Shown here: positions 632 to 56,261 of the stretch, piece after piece
How positions within the stretch are numbered: position 1 is the stretch's first letter
Layout of the letters: each line of letters begins with the position of its first letter
Assembly: GCA_965220255.1 (NCBI GenBank)
Contig: OZ244816.1
Location: forward strand, 779,720 to 843,719
Reading direction: 5' to 3'
Length of the DNA: 64,000 bases
From: Dehalococcoidia bacterium
GTDB taxonomy: Bacteria; Chloroflexota; Dehalococcoidia; Lucifugimonadales; VXLM01
The notes under the pieces: generated by a model
Seen by the model: the letters and a program-made list of their open reading frames with translations, nothing else
What the model was told of the DNA's origin: nothing
Databases searched by the model: none
Position numbers and translations under genes: made by a program

Positions 632-696
632 GGCTTCTATGCTCGGGGGGAACCGAGGAGTTAACCGCAGAGAACGCGAAGGGCGCAAAGGGGGGA

Positions 697-722
697 GGGC
701 AACCACAAGGGTTGCCCCTACG
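697..722. repeat. REP-E hairpin (gggcaacc-acaag-ggttgccc + ctacg)
   Basis: Near-identical copies at 5256 and 28855, variant at 11048. Confidence 0.7.
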
Positions 723-753
723 TGGGGTTCTTGGTGAGGGGGATGAAAAGGCC

Positions 754-1719
754 TTAGGTGACGACGTTGTTGGGGCGGCCTTCGAGGAAGGCAATGACGT
801 TGGTTACGGCGCCCTCGTTGAGTAGCTCGATGCCTTCGGGGGTCTGGTCGGCTAGGTGGGGAGTGAGGACGACCTGATCGCAGCCCAGGATGGGATGGTC
901 AGCGGGGAGAGGTTCCTCTGAGAAGACGTCGAGGCCGGCCCCGGCAAGGTGTCCCGATTTGAGGGCATCGACGAGTGCGGTGTCGTCGACAAGCTCGCCG
1001 CGTCCGCCGTTGATGAGGAGTGCGCCTGGCTTCATCAGGCCAAGCTCACGGGGACCGATGATGTGATGGCTGTCAGGGCTGAGGCGGACGTGGAGGCTGA
1101 CGACGTCGGACTGCTTCAGGAGATCGTCGAGGTCGACGAACTCGACGCCGAGTTCCTTGGCTCGTTCGGGTGAGGGGTTGAAGGTCCATGCTAGGCACTT
1201 CATGCCTATGGCGTTGGCGATGCGGGCGACCTCGCGTCCGACGTTGCCGGCGCCGACGATGCCGATGGTGTTGCCCTGCAGCGTCACGTTCTGCATGAGG
1301 GTCCAGCGACCGGCCTTGAGCTCGATGGTCTGGAAGGCGGCTCGCTTGGCGGCGGCGAACATGAGGCCGACGATGTGCTCAGCGACTACCGGGGCGGTGC
1401 GTCCGGGCTGGTTGCTGACGACGATGCCGAGCTCACGGGCCACGTCGATATCGATCATGTCGACGCCGATGGAGCAGGTGGCGATCATCCGCAGGTTGGG
1501 CAGTGCTCGCAGGGCTTCGGCGGGCCACTTGACGGCGCCGCGCGTGTTGATGATGACGTGGGCGTCGCGCGCCCGTTCAAGCTGGTCTTCCATGCTCGAA
1601 GGACGGTCGAGGTAGAGGTCGACATCTCCGTAGGGATCCAGACGTTCGAGGTGAGGCGAGCCTTGAATCTGCGGCGGGTTGTCGCCGGGGACGACGAATT
1701 TGAGGCGGGTGTCTGTCAT
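754..1719 (-). CDS. D-isomer-specific 2-hydroxyacid dehydrogenase family, NAD-binding
   Basis: 321-aa ORF; GIVGAGNVGREVA dinucleotide fold; overall PGDH/GyaR-like pattern. Confidence 0.85.
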   Translation of the reverse strand: MTDTRLKFVVPGDNPPQIQGSPHLERLDPYGDVDLYLDRPSSMEDQLERARDAHVIINTRGAVKWPAEALRALPNLRMIATCSIGVDMIDIDVARELGIVVSNQPGRTAPVVAEHIVGLMFAAAKRAAFQTIELKAGRWTLMQNVTLQGNTIGIVGAGNVGREVARIANAIGMKCLAWTFNPSPERAKELGVEFVDLDDLLKQSDVVSLHVRLSPDSHHIIGPRELGLMKPGALLINGGRGELVDDTALVDALKSGHLAGAGLDVFSEEPLPADHPILGCDQVVLTPHLADQTPEGIELLNEGAVTNVIAFLEGRPNNVVT

Positions 1720-1730
1720 GGCGTTAGGCG

Positions 1731-2405
1731 TCAGTTAGCCGCAGTCAGATCCTTGAGCACGTTCTCCCATTCGGCAGGACTGCCCTGTCCGAAGCCGGAA
1801 CGGTAGACAATTACGCCGTTTCCGTCGATGGCGACCTTAGTGGACTGTCGGGTGACGTTGAAGTCTTCAATCATGTTATCGCTTGGCGTCGCCACTTCTC
1901 CAACATGCCCACTCCTGTTCTGGGCCGCCGACAGGATGTCCAGAGATTCATTAAACGCGACGGCGTAGAGATCGACCGAGTCCTCAAAGGGCGGATACAC
2001 GGTGGTCAAGCCCCGCAACGCGGAGCGACAGTCCGATCACCAGGTGGCGTGGAACAGGATGAATACCGGTTTCCCCTCGGACACGAGATCGGTCGAGTTG
2101 ACGGACCGGTCGCCAGTGAGGGCCAGCATGTAGTCGGGCGCGCGGTCGCCGACACGGTGTCCGACGGGGACGGTTTCCTCGGAAGGCGCGGGCGCAGGAG
2201 CCGCAGTTGGTTCAGGAGCGGCCGCGGGCGGCGGGGAAGTCTGCGCTGCGGGTGGAGGAGGCGCAGACGCCGGTGAGGTCGCAGTCGTGTCGGCGGGTTG
2301 GGACTCGCTGGAAGAACCGGAGTCGCTTCCGCATGCGACAGCGGCGAGCAAAGAAAGCGCCGCGACAGAGACAACGACGTATCGAATGGTGGTTACGCGG
2401 TTCAT
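1731..2405 (-). CDS. TlpA/ResA-like thioredoxin-fold lipoprotein, predicted selenoprotein (Sec = TGA 2037..2039, motif W-U-S-D-C)
   Basis: ORFs 2037..2405 and 1731..2018 share one frame and are joined only by TGA. Lipobox LAAVAC-G. ...GKPVFILFHATW-[TGA]-SDC sits at the W-C-x-x-C position. The rest of the thioredoxin fold continues after the TGA. A hairpin lies 10 nt downstream. Confidence 0.7.
2010..2036 (-). other. Putative bacterial SECIS element (10-nt spacer + hairpin gcuccgc-guu-gcggggc)
   Basis: Immediately 3' of TGA 2037..2039; 26 nt identical to the paralogue at 2867..2892; 7-bp stem, G/U apical loop. Confidence 0.55.
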
Positions 2406-2434
2406 GGCGATGTCACCTCCACGATCTTGTTAGT

Positions 2435-2487
2435 GGATTCCCGCCCCGTATCGAGTACGGGGTGACGTTCTTCCGGGGGAATGACGG
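2435..2487. repeat. REP-A hairpin, long variant (ggattcccgc-[ccccgta..tacgggg]-..gggggaatgacgg)
   Basis: Same nested form at 3784 and 49686; short form at about 15 other sites. Confidence 0.75.
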
Positions 2488-2535
2488 CATGGGGGCTGTG
2501 TTCTCGGACATGCACATCATGCCTCCAGTCTTTCC

Positions 2536-2562
2536 GGATACCGGCCTCCGCCGGTATGGCGG
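2536..2562. repeat. REP-A variant (ggataccggc-ctcc-gccggtatggcgg)
   Basis: Same architecture as 18611, 40793. Confidence 0.65.
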
Positions 2563-2584
2563 TAGTGATCCTTGCAAGCGTCTC

Positions 2585-3688
2585 CTATTGTACGCTGTTG
2601 GCCAGTTCTTGGAGGACGGCGGCCCACTCGGCCGGGCTGCCTCGTCCGTAGCCGCTACGGTAAGTGATTACGCCGTTCCCGTCGATGGCCACCTTGGTGG
2701 ACTGCTGCGTCACTCTGAAGTCTCTGACCATGTTCCCCACAGCCCTGGCCACCGTACCGGCATGACCGCTCTCGTTCTGGTAGGACTGCAGAACGCTGAG
2801 AGGCTCGTCGAAGGCCACGGCGTAGAGGGCCACCTTGTCCTTGAACTGTGGATAGATCTCCGTCAGGCCCCGCAACGCGGAGCGACAGTCCGGTCACCAC
2901 GTTGCGTGGAACAGGATGAAGACGGGCTTCCCCTGCGCCACAAGGTCGGTGGAACTTACCTGGCTGCCTCCCGCAATGTTCAGGACATAGTCGGGAGCGA
3001 GATTGCCGACATTCGTGCCGGGCTGGGCAGTGACGGCAGATCGAGTCGGCTCAGGTTCCGGAACGGAAGTGGGAGTCGGCGGGACGGGCGTATACGTCGG
3101 GGTGGGCGGCACGGGCGTGTTCGTGGGTGTCGGAGGGACAGGCGTCGGAGTCGGAGGCAGCGGAGTTGGAGTAATCGTAGGCGTGGACGTGGACGTCGGA
3201 GTAGGCGTGCGAGTCGGCCTTGGGGTAAACGTGGGAATGAATGTCGCCGTAGCGGTTGGGGTGGGCTCGGCCGCGGCCTGTCCGTCCGATGTCGATGCGG
3301 GCACTGTGGGCGGGACTGACGTGGGCGTTGCCGTGGGAACAGGTGTTGAAGTTGGTAAGACAGGCGTCGCGGTTGAAGTGGAAGTGGGGACCGTCGTCGG
3401 CGTGGCTGTCGACGGCTCCGTGGTTGCGGTGGGTTCAGGCGTTGGGGGCGTCGTTGGAGTTGGGACCGGAGCCGGGGTTGAGGTCGGCGGCTGAGGCGTC
3501 GGTTCCGTGGTAGCCGTGGGTTCCGGCGTGTTGGTTGGTATTGCTGTAGGAACGGACTGCGCTAGAGGGGTAGCCGGTTCGTCGGCGCTCTCCTCAGGGG
3601 CACTGTCGGACTCGCCGCCGCAAGCAATGACGGCCACCGTCAACATGGTCAGCAGCCAATAGACCGATATGTGGATGAAGCGCTTCAT
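2585..3688 (-). CDS. TlpA/ResA-like thioredoxin-fold lipoprotein with long Pro/Thr linker, predicted selenoprotein (Sec = TGA 2894..2896, motif W-U-P-D-C)
   Basis: ORFs 2894..3688 and 2585..2875 share one frame and are joined only by TGA. Lipobox AVIAC-G. ...GKPVFILFHATW-[TGA]-PDC. The C-terminal half is homologous to the copy at 1731..2018. Confidence 0.7.
2867..2893 (-). other. Putative bacterial SECIS element (same hairpin as 2010..2036)
   Basis: Block cggactgtcgctccgcgttgcggggc is identical in both paralogues while flanking codons differ at wobble positions. Confidence 0.55.
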
Positions 3689-3783: not shown

Positions 3784-3836
3784 GGATTCCCGCCCCGTAT
3801 CGTGGTACGGGGTGACGTTCTTTCGCGGGAATGACG
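3784..3836. repeat. REP-A hairpin, long variant
   Basis: ggattcccgccccgtatcgtggtacggggtgacgttctttcgcgggaatgacg. Confidence 0.75.
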
Positions 3837-5134: not shown

Positions 5135-5170
5135 GGATTCACCACAGAGGGCGCGGAGAACGCAGAGGGG
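5135..5170. repeat. REP-G copy (ggattcaccacagagggcgcggagaacgcagagggg)
   Basis: Related copies at 10864, 15795, 33294; usually directly followed by REP-A. Confidence 0.65.
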
Positions 5171-5175
5171 GAGAT

Positions 5176-5200
5176 GGATTCCCGCTTTCGCGGGAATGAC
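5176..5200. repeat. REP-A hairpin (ggattcccgc-tttc-gcgggaatgac)
   Basis: Perfect 10-bp stem, 4-nt loop. Confidence 0.8.
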
Positions 5201-5255
5201 CATGGCCTTGCTCAAGGCTACATGAGGGTACGTAAATTGGGTTTACGCCGAGGAC

Positions 5256-10949: not shown

Positions 10950-10969
10950 TCTCTCCCGCGAACGGGAGA
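10950..10969. repeat. REP-B-like hairpin (ctctcccg-cgaa-cgggagag)
   Basis: Same sequence as 34557..34580. Confidence 0.65.
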
Positions 10970-10975
10970 GGGGAT

Positions 10976-11002
10976 TAGATTCCCGCTTTCGCGGGAATGA
11001 CG
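10976..11002. repeat. REP-A hairpin
   Basis: agattcccgctttcgcgggaatgacgg. Confidence 0.8.
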
Positions 11003-11047
11003 GTGGCTGTAATTGTTCAGTCTTGGTGAGGGGAACCGCGCCTCACA

Positions 11048-12186: not shown

Positions 12187-12307
12187 GTGTTCAGTCTTCG
12201 TGAGACCCCCACTCCCCTCCCCTGTGGATACTCGCCCCGTATCGTGGTATGGGGTGGCGGTATGACGGTGGCTGTGCGCGTTGTGTCCTCTCACGAAGTC
12301 TGAACAG
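12187..12307. repeat. REP-F composite MITE-like element (IRs gtgttcagtcttcgtgaga / tctcacgaagtctgaacag, internal REP-A)
   Basis: About 120 bp; same architecture at 27619, 27725, 37649, 49649. Confidence 0.7.
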
Positions 12308-12962: not shown

Positions 12963-13070
12963 ATAGTCGCGGAGACGTTGTATAGGGCCCCGACAGGTAA
13001 CCGGTAGCCGTTCGTGGTGAGCCCTTCGACAACTGCAGGAACCCCCTCTCTGGATCTCTCCCCCGCCGGG

Positions 13071-14402
13071 CTGACAGGGGTAGGTATTTCGTATTTTAGG
13101 TATCAGTGCCATAGATCATCCTCAGATTTGGCGACGGTTCGGGCCAAGCTTCAGGAAGCAGCCAGACCCTCTGCCACAGCCTGCCTTTGAGCAACAGACG
13201 ATTCAGCCAAATGATGCCCTGACGCAATACGCTTACAATCCGTCTCGGTCTGTTTGTGGCACTTCGATGTGTGGGCGAGACAAACTTCGGAGGCGCTCTG
13301 AGACGACTAGGGTTTACGCCCAAGCCGCTGGCATCTTCGACTCTGGTCCCATATGCCAGCGCCAATAGAGTTGACACAGACAACACCAGCCAATGACGAC
13401 TGACCCGTTCGGGATCTGTCCGGCGAGTCTTCTGCCATTGCCACCCAACGCTCTTGATCGCTTTGAAGCCCAGTTCTATCCAGAAGCGAAGTGCGTACCA
13501 GCACACCCCAGCTTCAGCAGGTGGGAGATCTGTCATCACAACCCATGGCTCTTGTTGGTCTTTGTCCCAGACCACAATCATTGTCCCCCGACGGCGTATG
13601 CTTGTGGCCCTGAACGCGGTCCCACCACCAACCCATGCGTGACCCGGCCCTGGTACGAGATACCGCGCTGGCAGACGAGTCCCTCCATCAGGACAGAAGA
13701 CGGTGTTGATCGACTGTCGTACGTAGGGATGCCACCCCGAAGAGCGTATCTGCTCCCACAACCTCGGACTCCTCAGACCACGGTCGCACATCACCAGCAC
13801 AGTCTTGTCCTTTGGGACCGCCGAAGACAGCAACGCCAGCAAGTCCACCACAGGGGATATCCACTGTCCGGGACTGTTGGCGGGAAGAATGTGCCAGGCA
13901 ACCGGAATGGCACAACTGCGATAGACCACGCTTATGACTATGGAGTTTAGCTTGTCGGCCTTCATCGTCGGGTCTATAGCTAACACTAGCCTGTCCGACT
14001 GCCACAATGACAGTACCCACCTCAACAGCGGAACAAAGCACGACCTCACATCCAATTGCACTTGGCAGGGCTTAGAACGGTCTTGACCATCGTAGAGCCA
14101 CTCTCTGATGTACTGACGCAGACTGTTGTAGTTACCCATAACCGAAAGGGCTGCACTGACAGCGTTCTGGCAACTACTCCCGGCCAGTATGGTCCCGTAC
14201 ACCCACAGAACCAGTCCTTTTATCTGAGAGTGTCTGAGCTGAGGCATGTGTTGTTCGACAGTCTGGAGCATCTGGTAGCATTCAGGTGGGAGGCGCATGG
14301 CGAATCTCTGGCAACCTTTCTGTCTGATACCAAAAAGATGCCAGAAACCCATGCGCTTTCCAAGTTCTTATACTTATTTTATATTTTACCTACCCCTGTC
14401 AG
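13071..14402 (-). mobile_element. Intact IS4-superfamily insertion sequence (1332 bp), 16-bp perfect terminal IRs ctgacaggggtaggta, 11-bp TSD cccccgccggg
   Basis: IRs at 13071..13086 and 14387..14402. Direct repeats at 13060..13070 and 14403..14413. Single transposase ORF. CTGAC termini as in IS10/IS50. Confidence 0.8.
13096..14352 (-). CDS. DDE transposase, IS4 superfamily
   Basis: 418 aa; LAIDPT (D), VLVMCDRG (D), YALRFWIELGFKAIK = Y-x2-R-x3-E-x6-K signature. Confidence 0.85.
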   Translation of the reverse strand: MGFWHLFGIRQKGCQRFAMRLPPECYQMLQTVEQHMPQLRHSQIKGLVLWVYGTILAGSSCQNAVSAALSVMGNYNSLRQYIREWLYDGQDRSKPCQVQLDVRSCFVPLLRWVLSLWQSDRLVLAIDPTMKADKLNSIVISVVYRSCAIPVAWHILPANSPGQWISPVVDLLALLSSAVPKDKTVLVMCDRGLRSPRLWEQIRSSGWHPYVRQSINTVFCPDGGTRLPARYLVPGPGHAWVGGGTAFRATSIRRRGTMIVVWDKDQQEPWVVMTDLPPAEAGVCWYALRFWIELGFKAIKSVGWQWQKTRRTDPERVSRHWLVLSVSTLLALAYGTRVEDASGLGVNPSRLRAPPKFVSPTHRSATNRPRRIVSVLRQGIIWLNRLLLKGRLWQRVWLLPEAWPEPSPNLRMIYGTDT

Positions 14403-14544
14403 CCCCCGCCGGGGGAGAGATCAGGGGTTTTTCGTCGTTGCGCTCCTCAGGAGGACAGGCAATTCCTGCACATCTCACCGAGTCTGAGCAGTTGCACGAT
14501 GGGCTAGTGTCTCGTTTCGTAAGTTCGCCATGTAATTCACAGCA

Positions 14545-15828: not shown

Positions 15829-15846
15829 AGGATAGGGTTTGAAGAT

Positions 15847-15873
15847 GGATTCCCGCTTTCGCGGGAATGACGG
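15847..15873. repeat. REP-A hairpin
   Basis: ggattcccgctttcgcgggaatgacgg. Confidence 0.8.
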
Positions 15874-15910
15874 GGTATGAGTTCCTGATACCCGGCGTGG
15901 TTCCGCACGG

Positions 15911-25960: not shown

Positions 25961-26128
25961 TGTGCTCACCGCGTACCGCTCTGTCTGGCTAAGATGTGTT
26001 GACATTTTCCAGTTTTTCTTCGCTATAACGGGTAACTCGGCATTCCCGCTTACGGTGAACTTTGCGCAACCCTCTCCCGCTGAGAGAGTGTTAGTGTGCG
26101 AGTACCACCCAGTTTTGGACGCGTCTCT

Positions 26129-26155
26129 GGATTCCCGCTTTCGCGGGAATGACGG
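26129..26155. repeat. REP-A hairpin
   Basis: ggattcccgctttcgcgggaatgacgg. Confidence 0.8.
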
Positions 26156-26202
26156 GAGGTGTTTACCTCACCCAATCCCATTTTATGGGAGAGGGAGACT
26201 CG

Positions 26203-27618: not shown

Positions 27619-27724
27619 GTGTTCAGAGTTGGTGAGGTGAACGTCCCCGCCCCTCTGGATTCCGGCCTTCGCCGGAATGACGGTGGCTTTATATGTCGAG
27701 CGCCCTCACTTACTCTGCTCGTAA
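27619..27724. repeat. REP-F composite element (right IR degenerate)
   Basis: gtgttcagagttggtgagg ... internal REP-A 27657..27683 ... cctcacttactctg. Confidence 0.55.
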
Positions 27725-28880: not shown

Positions 28881-28995
28881 AATGGGTAGCCGGGGTTTAT
28901 TTTCGTAGCAATGACAGGGGGTTGCTCGGATTGACGGGCTGTGACATGAGGTGCTCAAGGGTCGCAAAGGACGGGAACTCGGCGTTTCAGGACAT

Positions 28996-29022
28996 GGATT
29001 CCCGCGTGCGCGGGAATGACGG
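28996..29022. repeat. REP-A hairpin
   Basis: ggattcccgcgtgcgcgggaatgacgg. Confidence 0.8.
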
Positions 29023-29075
29023 ACGTTATGCAAGCGTCTTCTTACGTGGAAAAGACATTGGACAGGTGAACTTAG

Positions 29076-29978
29076 ATGGATAACGAGAGTCTTCTGGCAG
29101 AGGCTCGAGACAAGCACGGGGAGGCCTTAATTCTCGGTGAGCCTGCACTGGCGCACGCGGTGATCGAGCAGGCGCTCAGTCGCGGTTTGGGCCGGGCGGA
29201 ACTCTACCTGGAGGTATTGGCTCCTTCGCAGGTCAGGATCGGGGAGATGTGGCACGAGGGCAGGATCAATGTTGCCCAAGAGCACCTCGCGACGACGATA
29301 ACGATGGAGATGATGGACTTCTTGAGGCAGGGAATGGCGTCGCGGGCGGGACTGGGGGTGAGGGCCGTGGTGACGCCTGTGGAGGGCGACCAACACACTA
29401 TCGGGGCGCGAATGATAGCTGATTTTCTGGCGATGGACGGCTGGGAGGTCGATTTCCTTGGAAATGGAACGCCTGCCGATGATCTTGCCGAATTTGTTCG
29501 ACAGAGGAATGCCGATCTCGTTGCGCTCTCTTCCACCCTGCCTGAGTTCCTACCGAACGCCGGAAACGCCTCCAACGCGATCCGGGAACTGAACTCGCCC
29601 GTTCCGAAGATTCTGCTGGGCGGCAAGGCGCTCGACAAGGCGGACCGGGACATAGAAGGATTGGGATGCGACGCCACTGCGGGCAACATCTTGGAGGCGG
29701 TTGCGGAAGCGCGGCGACTCGTTGGCCTGACGGAGGAGAGGTTGACTCTCGAAGAGCAGTTGGGAGTGATGGGCAGACGGATCAATGAAGCGAGGGGCAG
29801 TCGGAAAATGACACAGCAGGCGCTGGCGGACGCATCGGGACTGGACCGGACGTATATCAGCCTGGTTGAGCATGGGAAGCAGAATCTCACTATTGGCGCG
29901 GCGCTTAAGATTGCCCATGCACTGGATGTACCGATCGGCAATCTACTGGCGTCCAGTGCCTCTGATCGAGAAGGGTAG
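29076..29978 (+). CDS. Cobalamin-binding (CarH/LitR-like B12 module) protein with C-terminal XRE-family helix-turn-helix
   Basis: IGEMWHEGRINVAQEHLAT is a W-x9-E-H motif. VVTPVEGDQHTIGARMIADFL is a D-x-H-x-x-G motif followed by a Rossmann-like B12 domain. The C-terminus MTQQALADASGLDRTYISLVEHGKQNLTIGAALKIAHAL is HTH_3-like. Confidence 0.8.
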   Translation: MDNESLLAEARDKHGEALILGEPALAHAVIEQALSRGLGRAELYLEVLAPSQVRIGEMWHEGRINVAQEHLATTITMEMMDFLRQGMASRAGLGVRAVVTPVEGDQHTIGARMIADFLAMDGWEVDFLGNGTPADDLAEFVRQRNADLVALSSTLPEFLPNAGNASNAIRELNSPVPKILLGGKALDKADRDIEGLGCDATAGNILEAVAEARRLVGLTEERLTLEEQLGVMGRRINEARGSRKMTQQALADASGLDRTYISLVEHGKQNLTIGAALKIAHALDVPIGNLLASSASDREG

Positions 29979-33293: not shown

Positions 33294-33313
33294 GGATTCA
33301 CCACAGAGTGGAG
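33294..33313. repeat. REP-G partial copy
   Basis: ggattcaccacagagtggag. Confidence 0.5.
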
Positions 33314-33317
33314 TCTT

Positions 33318-33344
33318 GGATTCCCGCGTACGCGGGAATGACGG
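33318..33344. repeat. REP-A hairpin
   Basis: ggattcccgcgtacgcgggaatgacgg. Confidence 0.8.
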
Positions 33345-33510
33345 AATGTGACGGTCTGTAATTCATGGACGGTAGGGGCGAGTGGCATCTTCACGTGAAT
33401 GCCAGTTGCGCGGTTGTTGCTATGTGCGGGCATTTCAGGGATTATTGCGCTGTCATGCCAAGAACCATTTAGATCTTCGGAACTGCCGGCGTCCATAGGC
33501 AGGGGGGCAC

Positions 33511-36685: not shown

Positions 36686-37186
36686 TTATTCCGTTACAGT
36701 TACAGTGCCACCGCCTGCCTCATTCCAGTCCACAGAGACCTCCGGCTCTTCCATAGTGCTGCCCTCTGCCGGAAGCCATACTACAGAGAACTCCGGCTCT
36801 TCTCCATTCCTGACCACAGAAACCTCCGGCTCTTCCATAGTACTGCCGTCTGCCGGAAGCCATACTACAGAGAACCCCAGCCCGTCGTCCGAATTAGCCA
36901 AGAGGACACTCGTTCCTATGCCGACAGCTGCCAGCACGACCGCCAACCCAATCCCGATACCCGTTAGTTTTCTCATCTCAACTCCTTCCTTGTGTTCTTT
37001 GAACGCGGCTCCCACGAGGTCGAAGATCATCTGCATCCATACAAGCAGCCCTCGGAAGCCGCCACCATCTCGACGCATCCGGTCGCGAAACAGCTGGAAC
37101 ATCAGCTCACCGTATTCGCGTCGGTGTTCCCGTGGATACACCACGAGCAGCCGGCGGTACACCCTTTCGGAGAGCACCTCAGACAC
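36686..37186 (-). CDS. PadR-associated single-pass membrane protein with tandem 28-aa repeat
   Basis: GTG 37186 overlaps the PadR stop (gtgtctga). N-terminus VSEVLSERVYRRLLVVYPREHRREYGELMFQLFRD is of the type usually found downstream of padR. One TM helix. The C-terminus repeats FSVVWLPA(D/E)GSTMEEPEVSV. Confidence 0.55.
   Translation of the reverse strand: MSEVLSERVYRRLLVVYPREHRREYGELMFQLFRDRMRRDGGGFRGLLVWMQMIFDLVGAAFKEHKEGVEMRKLTGIGIGLAVVLAAVGIGTSVLLANSDDGLGFSVVWLPADGSTMEEPEVSVVRNGEEPEFSVVWLPAEGSTMEEPEVSVDWNEAGGGTVTVTE
36731..36875. repeat. Tandem direct repeat, 84-nt period (about 1.7 units) inside the CDS
   Basis: cacaga(g/a)acctccggctcttccatagt(g/a)ctgcc(c/g)tctgccggaagccatactacagagaac at 36731 and again at 36815. 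Confidence 0.75.
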
Positions 37187-37648: not shown

Positions 37649-37756
37649 GTGTTCAGAGTTGATGAGGGGGAAACCCTATCCCCTGTGGATACCCGCTTTC
37701 GCGGGTATGACGGTGGCTGTGTATGCGTCGAGAGGGATCTCACGAAGGCTGAACAG
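37649..37756. repeat. REP-F composite element
   Basis: gtgttcagagttgatgaggg ... internal REP-A 37687..37713 ... tctcacgaaggctgaacag. Confidence 0.7.
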
Positions 37757-46660: not shown

Positions 46661-46818
46661 TGCGATAGGCGAGTCGGGAGATAAGTGCAGGGACGGTCTT
46701 CTACTTTAGGCGTATGCGGGAATCGACCCAGCTTCACGTCACTCCCGCGTAGGCGGGAGTCCAGCACGGTGAATAGGGATTCACTGCAAAGGGCGGGGAG
46801 CCCGCGGGCAAGGTTCGT

Positions 46819-46844
46819 GGATTCCCGCCTTCGCGGGAATGACG
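46819..46844. repeat. REP-A hairpin
   Basis: ggattcccgccttcgcgggaatgacg. Confidence 0.8.
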
Positions 46845-46966
46845 ATGTGTGGGTTGCAGCGTCAGATTCAAACCAATTGACGGTAGATGGGCTTGAACCG
46901 AAGTGCAGAGCCTGCACTTCGTCTCCCAATGGACACGGTTTCTCGCCGATACCCCTATAGGCTAAT

Positions 46967-49648: not shown

Positions 49649-49740
49649 GCGTTCAGAGTCGGTGAGAGAAATACCTCGCGCCTTCAGATTCCCGCCCCGT
49701 ATCGCTGTACGGGGTGACGTTCTTTCGCGGGAATGACGGT
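49649..49740. repeat. REP-F-like element (left IR gcgttcagagtcggtgaga + long REP-A 49686..49739), right IR not recognisable
   Basis: Shares left arm and internal hairpin with 12187/37649. Confidence 0.5.
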
Positions 49741-52860: not shown

Positions 52861-53886
52861 ATGGCAGCGTATGAACTAGCGTCCAAGAAGGTCCAACTTC
52901 AAGAGACCGACGATCCCATCGAATACTACTTCGAGCAGGGCTGGACCGACGGTCTGCCGGTCGTCCCTCCGACTGCGGAGAAGATCGGGGCGTTCCTTGA
53001 CGCTGTGGGACGGTCGCCGAGCGAGATACTCGGCACCGAGCCGGTGCGCGGTAGGGTCGTGACGGTCGAGAAGGTCGCCATCAACGCGGTCATGGCGGGA
53101 TGCCGCCCGGAGTATTTTCCCGTGGTGCTCGCCACCATGGAAGCGATGCTGGAGCCGGACCACAACCTCCACGCCGTGACGGTGAGCACGATGGGGGCGG
53201 CGCCGCTGCTGGTGGTCAACGGGCCTGTGGCAAACGAGATTGGGTTGAACTCCGGCGTGTCGGTCTTCGGACCCGGGAATCGCGCCAACGCGACCATCGG
53301 GCGTGCGGTACGGCTCACCATTATGAACGTGACCGGAGCGGTGCCCGGCGACCTCGATCAGTCGAGCCTGGGACACGCGGGGAAGTACACGTGGTGCATC
53401 GCCGAGGACCAGGAGACCAGCCCGTGGCAGGCGCTTCACGTCGACCGGGGCTACGCCTCCAGCCAGAGCACCGTCACGGTGTTTCCCGGCCTTTCGCCCA
53501 TCCAGGTGTCCAACCTCGGGGGCGGTTCGCCGGAGGAGGCGCTGAAGGGCGTGTCGGACGGGCTGATTGTGGCCGGCCCGGGCAACGCCGAGATCGTGGT
53601 CGTGCTCACGCCTGAGACCATCGGACACATCAAGGCCGGAGGATGGTGGAAGGAGCAGGTCGCGCAGTTCCTATGGGAACGCAGCAGACTGACTGCCGGG
53701 GAGTGGGACGATCATGGATATCCCACGGGCAACACCGATGCCGCTGAGCTTGTGGGCGTGACGACAGATTGGGAAGGAATCACGGTCATCGTGGCCGGAG
53801 GCAAGGCGGGATCGTTCTCTGCCGTCATCCCGCTCTGGGGCGGTGGGGCCAACTCGCGCTCCGTCTCGAAGGTGGTCCGGTCGTAG
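52861..53886 (+). CDS. Conserved-looking hypothetical protein (341 aa), partner of the UGSC selenoprotein gene
   Basis: Long ORF with coding-like composition; YYFEQGWTDGLPVVPPT...AINAVMAGCRPEYFPVV; no family name recalled; 11 nt after the peptidase gene and 36 nt before the next gene. Confidence 0.65.
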   Translation: MAAYELASKKVQLQETDDPIEYYFEQGWTDGLPVVPPTAEKIGAFLDAVGRSPSEILGTEPVRGRVVTVEKVAINAVMAGCRPEYFPVVLATMEAMLEPDHNLHAVTVSTMGAAPLLVVNGPVANEIGLNSGVSVFGPGNRANATIGRAVRLTIMNVTGAVPGDLDQSSLGHAGKYTWCIAEDQETSPWQALHVDRGYASSQSTVTVFPGLSPIQVSNLGGGSPEEALKGVSDGLIVAGPGNAEIVVVLTPETIGHIKAGGWWKEQVAQFLWERSRLTAGEWDDHGYPTGNTDAAELVGVTTDWEGITVIVAGGKAGSFSAVIPLWGGGANSRSVSKVVRS

Positions 53887-53922: not shown

Positions 53923-54459
53923 ATGACGACGATGTTGGAAGTGTTCGACCCGACGGTTGACCCGATACCCGCGCATGGAGTGGTCGCCAAGCGCCCTGAC
54001 ACGCTGAACGGGGCCGTCGTTGGCCTATTGGCGAATGGCAAGCAGAACGCCGACGAACTCCTCGAAATGGTGCATGACGTTCTCGCCGACCAGTTCGAGT
54101 TCAAGGCCGTCATCGCCCGCAACAAGGGGAACGCATCCCGCCCATGTCCCACGGACATCGTGGACGACCTGGCCTCAAGCTGCGACGTGGTGATCACCGG
54201 GAACGGTGACTGAGGGTCCTGTTCATCGTGCAGTGTGCACGACGGAATCACCCTTGAGAAGGCCGGTCTGCCGACAGCGGTGATCTGCACGGAGCCGTTC
54301 ATACCGAGCGCCCGCGCCATGGCGAAAATCCAGGGCATCCCCGACTATCCGTACATCATCCTTCCGCATCCGCTGGGCAGTCTGACGCCGGGCGAGCTTC
54401 GCAGTCACGCGGTCAAGATTGCCCCCGAGGTGCTGAGCATCCTGCTGGGGAAGGGGTAG
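53923..54459 (+). CDS. UGSC-motif protein, predicted selenoprotein (Sec = TGA 54211..54213)
   Basis: ORFs 53923..54213 and 54235..54459 share one frame. Read-through gives ...VVITGNGD-U-GSCSSCSVHDGITLEKAGLPTAVICTEPF...PHPLGSL. A hairpin lies 12 nt after the TGA. The 178-aa total fits my recollection of the UGSC (seleno)protein family. Confidence 0.7.
54214..54242 (+). other. Putative bacterial SECIS element (12-nt spacer + hairpin ucgugca-gug-ugcacga)
   Basis: Perfect 7-bp stem with G/U loop at the canonical distance from the TGA. Confidence 0.5.
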
Positions 54460-55268: not shown

Positions 55269-55354
55269 CGTCATTCCCGCGAAAGCGGGAATCTATTGCC
55301 TTTCTTGAGCATCCAAGATGCCCGAACTGGATTCCCGCTTTCGCGGGAATGACG
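55269..55354. repeat. Composite of two REP-A hairpins in opposite orientation (cgtcattcccgcgaaagcgggaatctatt ... cccgaactggattcccgctttcgcgggaatgacg)
   Basis: Direct-repeat partner at 56034..56106 on the other side of hisB. Confidence 0.75.
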
Positions 55355-55401
55355 ACTTGGGGCGGGATTACAACGGAATTTCTGAGAATGTATCACCGCC
55401 T

Positions 55402-56033: not shown

Positions 56034-56106
56034 CGTCATTCCCGCGAAAGCGGGAATCTATTCCCCTTCCCTAACACGTTAGAAACCCGAACTGGATTCC
56101 CGCTTT
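56034..56106. repeat. Composite REP-A element, second copy (3' part truncated)
   Basis: 29 nt + 21 nt identical to 55269..55354. Confidence 0.7.
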
Positions 56107-56183
56107 AGGATACCTTTGCGTAACCGCTCTTCCACTAAGAGATTGTCCGTGAAAGGGCATCTCCCAGCTTTGGAGACGTTTCT

Positions 56184-56209
56184 GGATTCCCGCCTTGGCG
56201 GGAATGACG
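56184..56209. repeat. REP-A hairpin
   Basis: ggattcccgccttggcgggaatgacg. Confidence 0.75.
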
Positions 56210-56261
56210 CTGGTTGTTCAAAGGTCTCCTTTCGCGAGAATGACGGGAATGTCTCTATTGC

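Follow-up and report, generated by a model that had tools for sequence, protein, structure and literature searches.

Predicted SECIS hairpins behind the in-frame UGA codons of two tandem thioredoxin-fold genes in a Dehalococcoidia bacterium

The bacterial selenocysteine insertion sequence (bSECIS) is described by the model of Zhang and Gladyshev, used in PMC1088965 and taken here as summarised in PMC13188914. It consists of an apical loop 3-9 nt long, carried by an upper stem of 4-16 bp, a G within the first two loop positions, usually as N1-G-[G/U]-N-N2, a UGA-to-loop distance of 16-37 nt, and a minimum free energy (MFE) of -7.5 kcal/mol or lower (PMC13188914). The SECIS of Escherichia coli fdhF is a minimal 17-nt stem-loop 11 nt from the UGA, with a bulged U17 and the loop residues G23 and U24 (PMC8659212). 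Known selenoproteins include UxxC Prx-like thiol:disulfide oxidoreductase, TlpA-like and Redoxin proteins (PF00578, cd02966 and PF08534; PMC13188914, a 2026 review). Selenoproteins of the Chloroflexi have been known since 2006 (PMC1794560), and metagenome-assembled genomes (MAGs) of Dehalococcoidia, with 46-49 selenoproteins each, are listed with the bacteria richest in such proteins (PMC13326102). Here we describe a 64,000-nucleotide stretch of contig OZ244816.1 from a Dehalococcoidia bacterium, referred to below as the window, in which two tandem minus-strand reading frames each contain a single in-frame TGA (2039..2037 and 2896..2894) followed by the same 26-nt block. Each block very probably holds a bSECIS: a 17-nt hairpin that lies inside the open reading frame (ORF), 10 nt past the UGA, with G-U in its apical loop.

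Compared with the consensus, nothing essential is different in the window elements, which agree with it in loop and stem size, loop G, spacing and MFE, and lie at the short end of its ranges for spacing and loop size. The hairpin can be drawn either as a 7-bp stem with a GUU loop, 17 nt from the UGA, or as a 6-bp stem with the 5-nt loop C-G-U-U-G, which matches N1-G-[G/U]-N-N2 and lies 16 nt from the UGA. The first-pass annotation had likened the spacing and the G/U loop to bacterial SECIS elements such as that of fdhF. The likeness holds for the consensus, for the 17-nt upper hairpin, for the spacing (10 nt here, 11 nt in fdhF) and for the GU in the apical loop, and by analogy the SelB-dependent mechanism is presumably the same. 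It does not extend to the bulged U in the 5' arm, which is absent here, so that the fdhF-type pattern is not reproduced; the loop has 3-5 nt rather than 6, its GU stands at 21-22 rather than 23-24 counted from the U of the UGA, and the two sequences are unrelated.

Tandem genes and the block behind their UGA codons

Copy 1 (1731..2405, minus strand) has 224 codons and, as judged from its translation and Pfam matches, encodes a lipobox-like AVAC motif, an Ala/Pro-rich linker and an AhpC/TSA-ResA-like thioredoxin fold with the motif W-U-S-D-C. Copy 2 (2585..3688, minus strand; 367 codons) encodes, on the same basis, a VIAC lipobox, a long Pro/Thr linker and a thioredoxin fold with W-U-P-D-C. The TGA of copy 1 (2037..2039) aligns with a Cys of the CxxC motif in homologues, and that of copy 2 (2894..2896) lies within the longer reading frame; the active site of both reads F-H-A-T-W-U-(S/P)-D-C, with the UGA at U. 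When U is replaced by C, the two products match PF00578 (AhpC/TSA) at 40 and 49.7 bits, respectively (gathering score 26), and copy 2 also matches PF08534 (Redoxin) at 31.6 bits (gathering score 26.6). Both copies therefore combine a domain scoring above the Pfam gathering score with U-x-x-C, the combination that defines the Prx-like/Redoxin UxxC selenoproteins. Matches to the NCBIfam ResA and DsbE models are weak, the best being ResA with 48 bits against a cut-off of 170, and no dedicated NCBIfam model matched the thioredoxin-fold copies. The nearest solved structures for copy 2 are ResA and DsbE/CcmG.

These genes share with the known UxxC Prx-like, TlpA-like and Redoxin selenoproteins the AhpC/TSA-Redoxin fold, selenocysteine (Sec) in place of the first Cys of CxxC, and the common occurrence of Cys homologues. 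They differ in their lipoprotein forms, long Pro/Thr linkers and tandem duplication, and copies have so far been found only in Dehalococcoidia/Chloroflexota assemblies, all retrieved gene calls from public records being broken at the TGA. Both products carry a predicted signal peptide and lipobox and would be exported as lipoproteins. Copy 1 terminates at a true TGA stop (1733..1731, minus strand) with no hairpin 3' of it (MFE -3.2), suggesting that the two meanings of UGA in one mRNA are told apart by the hairpin.

The 26-nt blocks (2035..2010 and 2892..2867, minus strand) both read CGGACTGTCGCTCCGCGTTGCGGGGC, which occurs nowhere else in the window, begin at the second base past the TGA and encode D-C-R-S-A-L-R-G. 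The first-pass annotation had reported this identity at 2010..2035 and 2867..2892, without any synonymous difference and with flanks that do differ, and all three observations hold: the bases bordering the block on either side are t in one copy and c in the other, and the codons just upstream read GCC ACC in one and GCA ACG in the other. The two thioredoxin domains have 69.7% DNA identity overall. Conserved degenerate codons are identical between the copies at 8 of 8 positions inside the block, against 41 of 78 outside it (P ~0.003-0.006, for a position specified beforehand), and identical runs of at least 26 nt arose anywhere in 453 of 20,000 column shuffles. On the evidence of the window by itself, the identity of the blocks is real and moderately beyond chance, which gives modest support. 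The copies are identical here, we propose, because the same bases encode the peptide and hold an RNA structure, freezing the synonymous sites.

The upper hairpin, GCUCCGC-GUU-GCGGGGC, occupies 2010..2026 in copy 1 (-11.9 kcal/mol) and 2867..2883 in copy 2 (-11.5 kcal/mol), both on the minus strand and both 10 nt past the UGA. Its stem of 7 bp includes one U·G pair and is closed by a GUU loop, and it is part of the MFE structure given by RNAfold for both copies, in agreement with the folding proposed in the first-pass annotation. The 36-nt elements of the two copies have MFEs of -17.1 and -13.5. A 3-bp lower stem across a 2-nt bulge had also been put forward. In copy 1 a possible extended element (2005..2029, minus strand) pairs GUC (2029..2027) with GAC (2007..2005) across a UU bulge (2009..2008); in copy 2 the extended element (2860..2888, minus strand) has a 5-bp lower stem of CUGUC (2888..2884) and GACGG (2864..2860) with a CU bulge, and an MFE of -18.1 for 50 nt. 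The lower stem is thus present in both copies; the orthologues described below lend it no comparative support.

Conservation among Dehalococcoidia orthologues

A protein search returned 27 fragments of ~96 residues that start just past the TGA, 17 fragments that end at it, and one full-length Cys homologue (P0018, with W-C-P-V-C); all public gene calls retrieved are fragments broken at the TGA. Scanning one genome per species yielded 20 loci, which all lie in Dehalococcoidia/Chloroflexota MAGs, several of them from sponges, and look-ups of three fragments added four more (L102-L105). The in-frame TGA is at the same codon, with both flanks conserved, in 20 of 20 genome loci, and it holds the same position in the three distinct metagenomic loci L102, L103 and L105, likewise from Dehalococcoidia/Chloroflexota. 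The genome loci hold 26 gene copies, since six have a second tandem copy: L003 (3870), L007 (3815), L008 (3731), L010 (3865), L011 (1144) and L012 (3652). L103 and L104 are identical over the 60-nt segment analysed, and only L103 was aligned. The resulting alignment, A3, contains 31 Sec-type sequences (the two from the window and 29 of those from the genome and metagenomic loci), is gapless over 60 nt, comprises 29 distinct sequences and includes relatives down to ~40% protein identity.

Synteny is kept in the order aminotransferase, selenoprotein gene(s), 2-hydroxyacid dehydrogenase. In L103 and L105 one copy lies between these two flanking genes, and both paralogue types are present in the six genomes with two copies; because several genomes have it, the tandem duplication is old. 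In the window, a repeat family of the form GATTCCCGCCCCGTATCG..GTACGGGGTGACGTTCTTTCGCGGGAATGACG (2435-2486, 3785-3836, 12227-12278 and 49687-49738) has one unit directly upstream of each thioredoxin-fold gene, and these repeats may have mediated the duplication. The one Rfam match, to RF02278 at 2411..2471 (29.7 bits, gathering score 50), is the unrelated REP-like intergenic palindrome of this repeat. In L102, a gene at 655-1788 (minus strand) that neighbours the orthologue and is flagged as PF03841 'SelA' is a pyridoxal phosphate (PLP) lyase of the DgaE/selA_rel family and not a selenocysteine synthase (TIGR00474, 49.9 bits against a cut-off of 267.9).

When folded individually, each of the 31 Sec-type sequences has the hairpin in its MFE structure at one and the same position, and the GUU of the loop is invariant in 31 of 31. 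The block had been said to stand or fall with the stem in orthologues: the stem is kept in all 29 sequences beyond the two window copies, and where pair 22-34 changes it is compensated. Across the 29 distinct sequences this pair is UA in 11, UG in 11, AU in three, GC in one, GU in one and unpaired in two, so that it covaries among U·G, U-A, G-C and A-U. The closing pair 26-30 is C-G in 22 of the 29 and A·G or A·A in seven. Because of this variability, what is conserved is a stem of 6 bp that carries the 5-nt loop (C/A)GUU(G/A); the 7-bp stem with one G-U pair of the first-pass annotation, although present in both window copies, is not kept throughout the relatives. The lower stem is paired in 17-19 of the 29 distinct sequences, within the close clade only, and shows no covariation. 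In the most distant clade (L014-L018) the stem consists of 3 bp, a 1-nt bulge on the 3' side, which sets this clade apart from the bSECIS consensus, and a further 3 bp, with a change from G-C in L014 to A-U in L015-L018.

Conservation at synonymous sites is local. The codons at +4 to +9 after the TGA are CGC in 29 of 29, TCC in 23 of 23, GCG in 23 of 23, TTG in 25 and TTA in five, CGG in 30 of 30 and GGC in 12 of 12. By contrast, the invariant Arg at +79 is encoded by CGT (9), CGC (12), CGG (2), CGA (6) and AGG (1), and other invariant residues use 3-5 codons each. Codons +4 to +9 form the top-ranking six-codon window of the gene, with a mean pairwise synonymous identity of 0.93 against a gene mean of 0.57, a value reached in 20 of 100,000 column permutations.

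Homologues with Cys at the Sec site provide a natural comparison. A metagenome scan used a Cys-containing peptide pattern and accordingly returned only Cys homologues, which served as negative controls. The TGA takes the first Cys position of CxxC in 31 of 31 Sec forms; all 81 Cys homologues have TGC or TGT at this site and no comparable hairpin. Mean MFE and z-score are -14.9 and -1.34 for the Sec forms and -9.0 and +0.13 for the Cys homologues (Mann-Whitney P ~2e-9, uncorrected for relatedness). The closest of the Cys forms (L021, L022 and L101) have a different peptide at the hairpin site and no equivalent stem.

These comparisons bear on the possibility that protein constraint on the helix after CxxC, together with codon bias, accounts for the conservation, with the hairpin being incidental in GC-rich DNA. 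The region is indeed the start of the post-active-site helix, which is conserved in thioredoxin folds, and the single-sequence MFE z-scores are unremarkable. Against this, synonymous sites are frozen only at the hairpin, and the Cys homologues have the same fold with another sequence here and no hairpin. In addition, amino-acid changes in the stem are coupled so as to keep base pairing, occurring as Ser(UCC)/Gly(GGC), Ser(UCC)/Ser(AGC), Ala(GCC)/Arg(CGC), and Thr(ACC)/Leu(UUG) or Met(AUG); judging from the aligned sequences, these would be hard to explain by protein constraint alone. We regard this explanation as very improbable.

In sum, the support for an RNA structure is modest from the two window copies and strong from the orthologues. 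A covariance model, R1, scores copy 1 at 71.7 bits and copy 2 at 82.7 bits, as expected by construction, since both are in the alignment of the model. Scanned against the window, R1 recovered only these two known copies; a match at 29155..29216 (plus strand; 15.7 bits, E 0.035) was set aside as a chance match, its TGA being out of frame with the ORF at 29076..29978.

Proposed decoding and competing explanations

The SECIS-like interpretation of the block is supported by its conservation in orthologues, by covariation, by its absence in Cys forms and by its fit to the consensus. The element appears as a typical bacterial SECIS in a known selenoprotein class, in a lineage known to use selenocysteine, and with the textbook mechanism. 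With the UGA in the ribosomal A site, the hairpin would lie at the mRNA entrance: it starts at +14 counted from the U of the UGA, and in the E. coli system this position, for a UGA in the A site, is approximately that of the mRNA entrance. The hairpin would be bound there by the C-terminal domain of SelB carrying Sec-tRNA(Sec), and the UGA would then be read as selenocysteine rather than as a stop. The predicted product is an exported, lipid-anchored ResA/TlpA-like thiol-disulfide oxidoreductase with a U-x-x-C active site. The window also contains a selenoprotein gene of the UGSC family, not related to these two and with a GU-loop hairpin of its own (see below), which is in keeping with this reading.

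Several observations weigh against a bSECIS. The folding energies of the window copies are ordinary compared with dinucleotide shuffles in GC-rich DNA (z -0.16 and -1.35). Covariation rests on few positions: the three inner pairs (CCG/CGG) are invariant and therefore uninformative, and changes on both sides occur in one pair only. Stem mismatches are found in L001 (G·G) and L010a (G·A), and L015-L018 fold weakly, at -7.4 kcal/mol, which is borderline for the consensus limit that the window upper hairpins satisfy. The 31 sequences are related, and the comparison of Sec with Cys forms is not phylogenetically independent. No Rfam SECIS model matched, either in the window at gathering scores or in 1700..3000 at E values up to 10. 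No tRNA, tRNA-Sec included, was found in the window, and selA, selB and selD are absent among ten of its longest ORFs as scanned with Pfam, a set that does not cover every gene of the 64 kb; the ten include GyrB, a solute-binding protein, an S9 peptidase, aminotransferases, HisD, Ldh_2, a transposase and AcrB.

About as improbable as protein constraint is a functional RNA unrelated to SelB, such as a pause or roadblock for the ribosome that favors near-cognate read-through of the UGA (as Trp or Cys), or an element acting in stability or regulation. Downstream structures are known to stimulate stop-codon read-through in other systems, and binding by SelB is proposed here by analogy. Such an RNA would leave three things unaccounted for: in alignments the UGA falls on the redox-active Cys of CxxC, the loop and spacing fit the SelB-type consensus, with the N1-G-U-N-N2 loop shared by the UGSC gene, and the lineage is known to decode Sec (PMC13326102).

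It is still less likely that the 26-nt identity is a short patch of gene conversion, or a remnant of recent duplication, with no RNA function. The copies do lie in tandem, ~860 bp apart and flanked by repeated REP-like elements, and two copies taken by themselves give modest support for anything more than chance. Orthologues at 20 other genome loci, some with as little as ~40% protein identity, have the same bases, though, and the 40-90% divergence of these loci excludes one recently spread mobile segment. Identity over the whole gene, which would have pointed to conversion, is not what is seen: the paralogues are ~70% identical in DNA, identity stops at the block edges, and synonymous conservation peaks at the hairpin codons. 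The duplication is also old, and within L007, L008, L010 and L011 the paralogues differ in the stem (GCGGAGC versus GCGGGGC; A/G at column 34) while both pair, so that homogenisation by gene conversion is not what conserves the block.

Equally slight is the chance that the TGAs are real stops, in pseudogenes or in pairs of separate short ORFs, as every retrieved public gene call, ending at the TGA or beginning just past it, would have it: each of the 31 aligned sequences, like the further copies L020 and L104, keeps the TGA and its flanks in frame, with no other disruption seen, a C-terminal fragment alone would be without active site and signal peptide, and an established UGSC selenoprotein is split in annotation at its TGA in the same way.

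Taking the hairpins as bSECIS elements, we can tentatively suggest a broader picture, which we think has less than an even chance of being right. The tandem UxxC oxidoreductases, lipoproteins with Pro/Thr linkers, could represent a Dehalococcoidia-specific family of extracytoplasmic selenoproteins that lies outside the curated models; their SECIS could be an unusually clear case of coupled substitutions dictated by RNA; and, together with the UGSC element, it might define a minimal N1-G-U-N-N2 motif for the SelB of this lineage. The value of the locus is mainly for annotation. With genes split in every retrieved record, the selenoproteome of sponge- and marine-associated Dehalococcoidia is under-annotated, and a well-defined, conserved SECIS alignment would permit automatic rescue of the split genes. 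For teaching, the locus also illustrates neatly how protein and RNA constraints can overlap; it neither challenges nor extends what is known of how selenocysteine is inserted.

The UGSC gene and other features of the window

The third selenoprotein gene of the window (53923..54459, plus strand) is a member of the UGSC family (NCBIfam NF041046, 155 bits against a cut-off of 125), obtained when the ORFs at 53923..54213 and 54235..54459 are joined through the in-frame TGA at 54211..54213; its motif is D-U-G-S-C. An analogous hairpin 12 nt past this TGA had been noted in the first-pass annotation; it is present and is conserved in orthologues as well. The upper hairpin (54226..54242, plus strand), UCGUGCA-GUG-UGCACGA, forms part of an extended stem (54212..54255) with an MFE of -20.3 and a z-score of -2.26. 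Its loop, A-G-U-G-U, fits N1-G-U-N-N2, giving this member of the family a GU-loop SECIS of its own with a 12-nt spacer. The upper hairpin is invariant in L106, L107, L111, L115 and L116, orthologues with protein identities as low as 56%, and the lower stem varies among orthologues with its pairing kept. The UGSC gene is unrelated to the thioredoxin-fold genes in both protein and hairpin sequence.

Immediately upstream of the UGSC gene lies a 341-residue ORF (52861-53886, plus strand) without a Pfam or NCBIfam match. Genes of 340-345 residues for which no Pfam match is recorded occupy the corresponding place in L106, L107, L108 and L110 (1-563), the one in L108 being truncated to 301 residues by a contig end; no such gene is found upstream of the UGSC gene in L111-L114. 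The ORF may be a conserved partner of the UGSC selenoprotein.

The window is also rich in repeats. Short palindromic intergenic repeats of the form GGATTCCCGC-TTTC-GCGGGAATGACG, resembling repetitive extragenic palindromic (REP) sequences or miniature inverted-repeat transposable elements (MITEs), form a dense family of at least 20 copies distributed over both strands; examples are at 5165-5206, 10966-11007, 15836-15877, 26118-26159, 27646-27687, 28985-29026, 33307-33348, 37676-37717, 46808-46849, 55269-55359 and 56034-56214. Several other small repeat families also occur. An ORF for a DDE transposase (13096-14352, minus strand) has copies of an inverted CTACCCCTGTCAGCCC...GGGGGAGAGA repeat near 13055-13086 and 14387-14418, which suggests an insertion sequence. 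Finally, an 82-nt tandem direct repeat at 36721-36886, with two copies of 89% identity and a period of 84 nt, lies within ORFs of coding size.

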